Shown here: positions 48,656-50,171 of the stretch, piece after piece
Position numbering within the stretch: position 1 is the first letter of the stretch
Layout: each line of letters starts with the position of its first letter
Assembly: GCF_016026235.1 (NCBI RefSeq)
Contig: NZ_CP065613.1
Reading direction: 5' to 3' (one strand)
DNA length: 64,000 nucleotides
From: Escherichia coli
GTDB lineage: Bacteria > Pseudomonadota > Gammaproteobacteria > Enterobacterales > Enterobacteriaceae
Translations under genes and position numbers: made by a program
Notes under the pieces: model-generated
What the model was told of the DNA's origin: nothing
Database searches by the model: none
Seen by the model: only the letters and a program-made list of their open reading frames with translations

Positions 48656-48768
48656 GGTCAAAGCCGGTATCATTAACCAGAGTCATCGTGACCTGTACTG
48701 CGGCTGGATGATCTCCTGCTACTGCAACTGCTAGGCGACCGCGGCTCCCTTCAGGTAGTCTGTTGTGG

Positions 48769-49607
48769 TCAACTAAAACTGGCCTCCGCGTTAGAGTTTT
48801 TCCAGTATCGGTTTTCTGATTCGTTTGGTGGTAACCCACCATTATATTCGTGCGGTCTTAGTGCGCTGTAATATCCAACGATATAGTCCGTTATTGCGTG
48901 AGCTGCATCGCTGAAGCTTACATAGCCCGTCGCTGGCACCCATTCGTTCTTCAGACTCCTGAAGAAGCGCTCCATTGGGCTGTTATCCCAGCAGTTTCCA
49001 CGCCGACTCATACTCTGCCTGATCCGGTATCGCCACAGTAACTGCCGGAACTGCCTGCTCGTATAATGACTGCCTTGATCGCCTGGAACATCACCCCGAC
49101 GGGCTTACCACGGGTTTCCCATGCCATTTCCAGTGCTTTCATGGTAAGCCTGCTGTCCGGCGAGAACGACATGGCCCAGCCCACTGGTTTTCTTGCGAAC
49201 AGGTCGAGAACAACGGCGAGGTACGCCCAGCGCTTACCCGTCCAGATATAGGTCACATCACCGCACCACACCTGATTTGGTTCCGTTACGGCGAACTGTC
49301 GCTCAAGATGATTCGGGATAGCAACGTGCTCATGACCGCCACGCTTATACCGGTGAGTCGGCTGCTGGCAACTGACCAGCCCCAGCTCTTTCATGAGTCT
49401 GCCAGCAAGCCAGTGCCCCATCTGGTAGCCTCTCTGGGTTGCCATTGTGGCGATGCTTCTTGCTCCGGCAGAGCCGTGGCTGATGCCATGCAGTTCAAGT
49501 ACCTGGCTGCGTAATACAGCCCGTCTGCCGTCTGGTTTTTCAGGACGGTTTTTCCAGTATTTGTAGCTGCTGCGATGGACCCCGAACACATGGCAGAGAG
49601 TGGCCAC
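48769..49607 (-). pseudogene. insO: IS911 orfB (insO-like), frameshifted
   Basis: Integrase-core homology (...[37 protein letters not shown]...) split between ORFs 49008..49607 and 48769..49011. Confidence 0.7.
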
Positions 49608-49662
49608 AGGATAACGCGCCCTGAGTTTCCCGATTATCGAAAACTGTTCAGGGAGTCTGACA

Positions 49663-49934
49663 TCAAGAGCGCGGTAGCCTTTTTAATATTTCATTTTCCA
49701 TTTCAATACGTTGTAGCTTTTTCCTGAGCTCACGGATTTCAATTTGTTCCGGGGTAATGGGGGAGGCTTTTGGTGTTTTTCCCTGCCGCTCATCACGTAA
49801 TTGTTTCACCCATCGCGTCATTGTGGAAAGGCCGACATCCATAGCGCTGGCTGCATCTGCCACGGTGTATTTCTGGTCAACGACCAGTTGAGCGGATTCG
49901 CGTTTAAACTCTGCGCTGAAATTTCTTTTTTCAT
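49663..49934 (-). pseudogene. insN: IS911 orfA (insN-like), frame-disrupted
   Basis: Body ...[57 protein letters not shown]... matches IS911 OrfA, but the ATG at 49934 is out of frame and the A6G slippery heptamer reads ttaaaaagg (one A short), ending the frame as ...EILKRLPRS*. Confidence 0.7.
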
Positions 49935-50171
49935 TATGGCACCTGTGTTGTTCTGAGGTGAGCATATCACCTCTGTTCAGGTAGCTAAATTTAGTGTGCC
50001 ACCTCAAGGTTCTTAGTGAGCCGTTTTTAAAAGATATGATAATATATTATTGTTTATAAATTGTTGATGTTTGATTTAGTAGTATATAAAGTTCACCAAC
50101 TTTATTAGGCTTTCCTTTTATCTCTACTTACTGGGTGCCAGAAACTTTAAATTTTAAACGGAGGGGGCATT

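Follow-up and report, generated by a model that had tools for sequence, protein, structure and literature searches.

A degenerate IS3-family insertion sequence, closest to ISEc52, at the yjhV-fecE junction of Escherichia coli

Location and identity of the element

The window, by which we mean the whole 64,000-nucleotide stretch of Escherichia coli DNA analysed here (contig NZ_CP065613.1), contains a degenerate IS3-family element flanked on one side by a polysaccharide-deacetylase/capU/virK/lpxM island and on the other by a small yjhV-like gene followed by fecEDCBA. Read along the minus strand from 50006 to 48761, the element begins with TGAGGTGGCACAC and ends with GTTGACCACAACA (Table 1). The original prediction had placed an IS911-like element at 48760-50006; the element is real and only its start had to be moved, position 48760 lying one base beyond the terminal CA. 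Its size and ends (about 1250 bp, imperfect inverted repeats of about 36 bp and TG...CA termini) are those of the IS911/ISEc52 type, as is its gene content (an orfA HTH and an orfB DDE/rve domain), though the domains are spread over three reading frames. The intact copies that we compared measure 1249 bp, exactly 3 bp more than the window copy.

For naming and for locating lesions we used copies labelled by PGAP, rather than ISfinder reference sequences, as comparators: an intact ISEc52 copy carried by an IncI1 plasmid of E. coli, an intact IS911 copy from strain CH4799 that is annotated with a programmed frameshift, and an 'IS911 family' copy from strain 789. Alignment to the intact ISEc52 copy gave 98.95% nucleotide identity over 1238 bp, with 10 mismatches and 3 gaps, while identity to IS911 copies was 92.6%. 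Judged by these alignments, the nearest named relative is ISEc52, and 'IS911-like' is right at the family level only. ISEc52, a label that PGAP applies to intact plasmid copies (e.g. NZ_CP019905.1), resembles the window copy in its orfA/orfB layout and in the tip of its right inverted repeat (IRR), TGTTGTGG. On the other hand, the window copy lacks three bases that ISEc52 has (A7 reduced to A6, A6 to A5, and a C in orfB), and positions 9-11 of its left inverted repeat (IRL) read CAC, as they do in IS911, instead of the TTT of ISEc52. IS911 of Shigella and E. coli shares the architecture, the context of the slippery site and the downstream stimulator sequence with the window copy, which nevertheless can make none of OrfA, OrfB and OrfAB in their normal form.

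The feature is already annotated as a pseudogene in public genomes, as is the corresponding copy in K-12. PGAP describes the same sequence in FDAARGOS_943, IAI39 and WP7 as an 'IS3 family transposase, frameshifted' pseudogene, and the window allele in CEA106S as a frameshifted 'IS3-like element ISEc52 family transposase' pseudogene; every genome that we fetched bears the label 'frameshifted' at this locus.

Table 1. Coordinates of the element, its inverted repeats, frame lesions and reading frames in the window
Feature	Position	Strand	Description
Degenerate IS3-family element (ISEc52/IS911 type)	48761..50006	minus	1246 bp, ends 5'-TG...CA-3'
IRL, 36 bp	49971..50006	minus	Four private substitutions, at positions 4, 15, 21 and 24
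Frame with orfA body	49663..50007	minus	114 codons, ending ILKRLPRS-stop; HTH_Tnp_1
OrfA' frame	49663..49965	minus	100 codons from the upstream ATG at 49965-49963; Pfam HTH_Tnp_1, E=7.6e-14
Lesion 1	49926..49934	minus	orfA ATG (49934-49932) followed by A6 (49931-49926), not A7; from alignments
Lesion 2	49678..49684	minus	Remnant of the -1 heptamer A_AAA_AAG, now AAAAAGG; A5 at 49684-49680; from alignments
orfB N-terminal part	49084..49682	minus	HTH_21 and first two thirds of rve core
orfB middle frame	49008..49607	minus	199 codons; HTH_21 and rve
Lesion 3	49083..49084	minus	1-bp deletion (C of TTCCACAGC) between the two bases, plus A>G at 49083; from alignments
orfB C-terminal part, third frame	48769..49083	minus	rve_3/rve_2; Pfam rve_3, E=1.7e-10
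orfB end frame	48769..49011	minus	80 codons; rve_3/rve_2
IRR, 36 bp	48761..48796	minus	One private substitution; block TGGCCTC, not TGGCCAC

Three frame lesions

At the three sites where the window copy is broken, intact ISEc52 and intact IS911 agree, reading A7, A6 and CACAGC, respectively. In both, the orfA ATG is followed by seven A residues; in the window it is followed by six. That the start region of orfA is one A short, with its ATG out of frame, was predicted correctly: the canonical ATG is out of frame with the orfA body and opens a frame of only 38 codons. This first lesion is missing from copies of the K-12, strain 789 and 2003-3014 types.

The second lesion lies in the slippery run, which reads TTAAAAAGG in the window, with five A residues where intact ISEc52 and IS911 have six; the surrounding stretch is ATATTAAAAAAGG in the intact copies and ATATTAAAAAGG in the window. 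Published features of IS911, namely a 100-aa OrfA, 36-bp inverted repeats and a -1 frameshift (PMC2909936), are matched by its intact relatives, and the A_AA.A_AA.G motif, together with an upstream GGAG and a downstream stem-loop, has a role in the frameshift (PMC4066793). Translation of the intact IS911 copy accordingly yields a 100-aa OrfA and, after a -1 slip, a continuous OrfAB. In the window, frame 0 at the slippery site has become UUA AAA AGG, with termination five codons later (TGA at 49665-49663), and orfB is shifted to +1 relative to orfA, so that the arrangement of a -1-frame orfB behind an A_AAA_AAG heptamer is gone. As this is the loss of a feature in a descendant, the ancestry of the element is not in doubt. 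The heptamer had been reported as one A short with orfA ending in LPRS and a stop, as we find.

The strain 789 copy, annotated with a 'programmed frameshift' and carrying A5, was considered as the IS911 reference, in which case a five-A run would have been the norm and not a lesion. It was rejected because its frames need a +1 or -2 join. The truly intact IS911 copy of CH4799 has A6, and the Shigella plasmid copies of IS911 that were listed span one base more than the A5 query, as an A6 run would.

The third lesion, a further break in orfB, had also been foreseen, although near 49040-49060; it is real and lies some 25-45 bp away, at 49084/49083. There TTCCACAGC of the intact copies has become TTCCAGGC in the window, with no change in any homopolymer. 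The claim that the lesions affect homopolymers thus holds for the two in A-runs and fails for the orfB deletion. The break falls inside the rve integrase core, two codons ahead of the HSDQG motif, which we take to hold the second catalytic Asp of the IS3-family DDE transposase, and leads to a premature stop at 49010-49008. It would therefore remove the second Asp and the Glu of the DDE triad from any orfB product. The deletion is common to K-12 MG1655, EC130, 2003-3014 and all ten strains compared at the locus (see below).

Reading frames, domains and inverted repeats

In a six-frame list of open reading frames, what is left of an IS3-type gene pair is distributed among three frames. The upstream ATG, at which PGAP starts the pseudogene, is in frame with the orfA body because of lesion 1, and the frame has its ILKRLPRS ending because of lesion 2. 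HTH_Tnp_1, rve and rve_3/rve_2 all scored above their Pfam cut-offs, the rve integrase core being split between two frames. In the N-terminal part of orfB, rve matched over profile positions 2-65 of 102 (E=1.9e-16) and HTH_21 reached 25.3 bits (E=1.8e-5), just below its gathering cut-off of 28.1. An Rfam scan of 48600-50200 at E<=1 matched no RNA family, so there was no curated frameshift-element model to test, and promoter and terminator scans found nothing above the shuffled expectation within the element.

Both inverted repeats have decayed in the conserved TGGCCAC block, which in the IRL of the window copy is TAGCTAC; the four IRL substitutions were found in none of the four comparator copies. 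The element is not flanked by a 3-bp target duplication (left flank ...CCT, right flank GAC...), which is consistent with an exchange of flanks by recombination. Intact frames and copies at several loci, both expected of an active autonomous IS, are absent here. With its three frame breaks, substitutions in the TGGCCAC blocks of both repeats and no target duplication, the element bears out the prediction of a dead copy. We are confident that what remains here is a molecular fossil: an IS3-family insertion sequence, nearest to ISEc52, that has lost the ability to make transposase.

Conservation of the lesions among strains

At 99% identity or more, 892 E. coli complete-genome records contain a match to the element with 20 bp of flank on each side, and the best 40 of these 892 all span exactly 1291 bp. 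Copies over at least 80% of its length are present in roughly 1800 complete genomes. The loci in FDAARGOS_943, IAI39 and CEA106S align to the window without a gap over 5377 bp. We further aligned ten strains with a copy at the locus, all separate assemblies: the window, FDAARGOS_943, IAI39, CEA106S, WP7-S17-ESBL-04, 042, CE10, UMNK88, 4/2-1 and 5CRE51. The alignment is ungapped over 1291 bp and has 15 variable sites. In orfB, eight substitutions change an amino acid or create a stop and five are silent, and a stop codon at 48945 is new in two of the ten strains, a pattern that fits relaxed constraint.

Searches with single lesions gave a similar picture. Lesion-bearing 81-mers matched 423, up to 1187 and 501 records for the three lesions, respectively, at 99% or more, a band that can include end-trimmed matches, such that the counts of exact copies are approximate. 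The 100-aa product that depends on both lesion 1 and lesion 2 occurs in exact form on at least 1000 contigs, as does the 80-aa C-terminal reading frame. Over about 23 kb the window differs from strain WP7 by only one 2-bp and one 14-bp indel, and no homopolymer indel was found between the two in that stretch.

Mosaic relatives at the yjhV-fecE junction

The yjhV-fecE junction is the only locus at which the lesion-bearing copy was found, with the same indels in every strain examined. Two full-length matches in a plasmid collection were considered as a dead copy at a new site and rejected, as both have fecE, fecD and the yjhV-like gene on their right; one keeps the shf-lpxM left flank and the other has the chromosomal ahr/yjgR left flank, and no plasmid replicon was found in either. 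They are thus chromosomal DNA at the same right junction, and there is no sign that the lesion-bearing copy ever moved.

K-12 MG1655 has the same right junction (yjhV-fecE), with an annotated IS911B/insO pseudogene (b4623). Its right end, right flank and right portion are identical to those of the window copy, and it has the 1-bp orfB deletion and the A5 run in common with it, but not the A>G at 49083. In contrast, its left half is of the IS911 type, with seven A residues still following the ATG, and in its left flank yjhD/yjhE takes the place of the shf-capU-virK-lpxM island. It is also interrupted by IS30D and an IS600 fragment. The K-12 copy (MG1655 4507125-4509801) is a hybrid, with the crossover between window positions 49281 and 49146, and is consistent with two family members having recombined while the island between them was deleted or swapped. 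Other strains have further combinations: EC130 carries the K-12-type hybrid uninterrupted; 2003-3014 has another left flank and mosaic, with A6G and a 3-bp insertion and with the same orfB deletion and right junction; and in Nissle 1917 the deletion-bearing right part adjoins fecE. Overall, among copies with this right half and right flank, the left half can be of the IS911 or the ISEc52 type, and three different left flanks occur.

The right flank of the strain 789 IS911 copy, a fragment of a DUF2254 gene, is a 100% match to window positions 57640-57936, which means that the IS911 of strain 789 borders the same island on its far side. WP7, collinear with the window in that stretch, has a DUF2254 gene annotated as complete.

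Alternative explanations

An IS copy that is in truth intact might appear to have these frame breaks through sequencing or assembly errors in homopolymers, and the original prediction had allowed for such systematic error. In two of the three lesions an A-run has lost a single base, a kind of change typical of some sequencing platforms, and the neighbouring ISEc60 copy in the window is also one G short in a G4 run. However, the same indel state recurs in ten separately assembled strains, including IAI39, 042, CE10 and UMNK88, and in hundreds of complete genomes; the lesion-dependent products are encoded on at least 1000 contigs; K-12 MG1655 carries two of the lesions; the third lies outside any homopolymer; and about 23 kb of comparison between the window and WP7 turned up no homopolymer indel. 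Because the indels are common to independent assemblies, sequencing error is excluded for the element, and we give this reading practically no chance. It follows that the lesions, being inherited mutations, carry no information on the quality of the assembly, for which they had been proposed as a gauge.

The remaining alternatives accept that the copy is damaged and ask whether part of it still works. A dead transposon might have kept its 100-aa OrfA' as a trans-acting regulator or inhibitor of incoming IS911 or ISEc52 copies, since IS911 OrfA is a known regulator of transposition (PMC2909936). Its upstream ATG, preceded by GAGGTGAT, is in frame with the orfA body through lesion 1, its HTH_Tnp_1 domain is intact, most of the leucine zipper is present, and the exact reading frame is very widespread. 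On the other hand, there is essentially no spacer between the Shine-Dalgarno-like sequence and the ATG, the 14 C-terminal residues of OrfA are replaced by RLPRS, and the blocks bound by OrfAB are decaying in both inverted repeats of the window copy. Nor does an open frame of 100 codons require selection, as it is expected by descent alone among copies that differ by less than 1%; in the ten strains, orfA' has one amino-acid change and one silent change, a very small sample with no signal of purifying selection. While a residual protein product from this frame is conceivable, its retention as a regulator is highly unlikely. More improbable again is that the element persists as a non-autonomous copy mobilised in trans by an intact IS911 or ISEc52 transposase. 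The terminal TG...CA and most of both inverted repeats are still present, and many E. coli have intact relatives, but the conserved TGGCCAC blocks are mutated in both repeats, the lesion-bearing copy sits only at the yjhV-fecE junction (the plasmid-collection matches included), and IS911 transposase works about 200-fold better in cis (PMC5009743).

A five-A slippery site in other copies

A5G in place of A6G is not confined to the window copy, occurring also in the IS911-type copy of strain 789 and in the left half of the K-12 copy. On plasmids, IS911-type A5 copies are very rare, with two full-length perfect matches among those listed, one of them on a 4.9-Mb plasmid-collection record. ISEc52-type A5 copies are found on many Klebsiella plasmids, with two different left junctions: the full-length copies have otherwise intact reading frames and inverted repeats, and at the second left junction the A5 copy has no recognisable right end. 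The loss of one A from the slippery heptamer thus recurs in separate lineages of the IS911 family (IS911-type at the yjhE junction, ISEc52-type in the window, and Klebsiella plasmids). PGAP annotates the strain 789 copy as a 'programmed frameshift' even though its orfB needs a +1 or -2 join, and gives protein accessions to the full-length Klebsiella plasmid copies as if their genes were intact, while orfB is no longer in the -1 frame.

In AAA_AGG_C, a very slippery Lys codon precedes the rare Arg codon AGG, and at known +1 shift sites the P-site tRNA slips while the A site awaits a rare codon. By analogy, low-level production of transposase from A5 variants through a +1 shift is conceivable, as is a selected 'off' state, but we regard both as unlikely. 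For the window copy, +1 frameshifting is moot because orfB is broken further downstream. A literature search for the literal heptamer with IS911 returned incidental papers only.

Other lesions and insertions in the window

A copy of the IS4-like ISEc60 at window positions 47363-48653, with a target duplication of about 12 bp, splits the yjhV-like gene beside the fossil; no insertion at the same site was found in other complete genomes. Where the ISEc60 copies of two other genomes have a G4 run, this copy has one G fewer (near 48081), and its transposase reading frame is consequently cut to 244 aa. Pfam gave no match for this 244-aa frame, which was identified as ISEc60 by DNA comparison. It is the only homopolymer indel in the window for which a sequencing error is still conceivable beside a real mutation.

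The lgoD lesion, which had been named together with those of the element as bearing on assembly quality, turned out to be a 17-bp deletion between 7-bp direct repeats (CCCGCAG) at about 3985 and involves no homopolymer. The 17 bp are kept in all of the best matches listed, among 5387 E. coli genomes with a match, and the deletion appears to be specific to the window strain. In addition, tsr has gained a 9-bp in-frame repeat (CAGCAA-type) at about 7165 relative to K-12, and the differences from WP7 at about 54496 and 59096 are a 14-bp insertion and a 2-bp difference, neither in a homopolymer. Finally, the window has 1331 bp at positions 60025-61355 that WP7 lacks, and the junction overlaps by 5 bp; the InsC-like and InsD-like reading frames of this insertion are both open, with no frame damage, and it looks like an intact IS2.

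History and significance

The dead ISEc52-like copy very probably goes back to an old insertion beside yjhV-fecE. Its oldest lesion is probably the orfB deletion, because it is present in every copy with the right junction; the slippery A would have been lost second, and the A of the start region last, since only the lineage with shf-capU-virK-lpxM as its flank shows that loss. Homologous recombination with incoming family members would have swapped left halves and left flanks, and K-12 IS911B may be one example. The differing left halves and left flanks of copies that share the right junction suggest that the element today acts mainly as a patch of homology for recombination. Both the order of the lesions and this role as an anchor are inferred from a handful of loci and not from a phylogeny.

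The fossil serves as a landmark for the border at which the fec (ferric citrate) region meets the shf-capU-virK-lpxM island. When an IS has broken frames at its homopolymer runs, the damage can mimic sequencing errors; here it consists of fixed, inherited mutations. Moreover, the mosaic relatives at the junction, K-12 IS911B among them, point to a dead insertion sequence that may continue to serve as an anchor for recombination.
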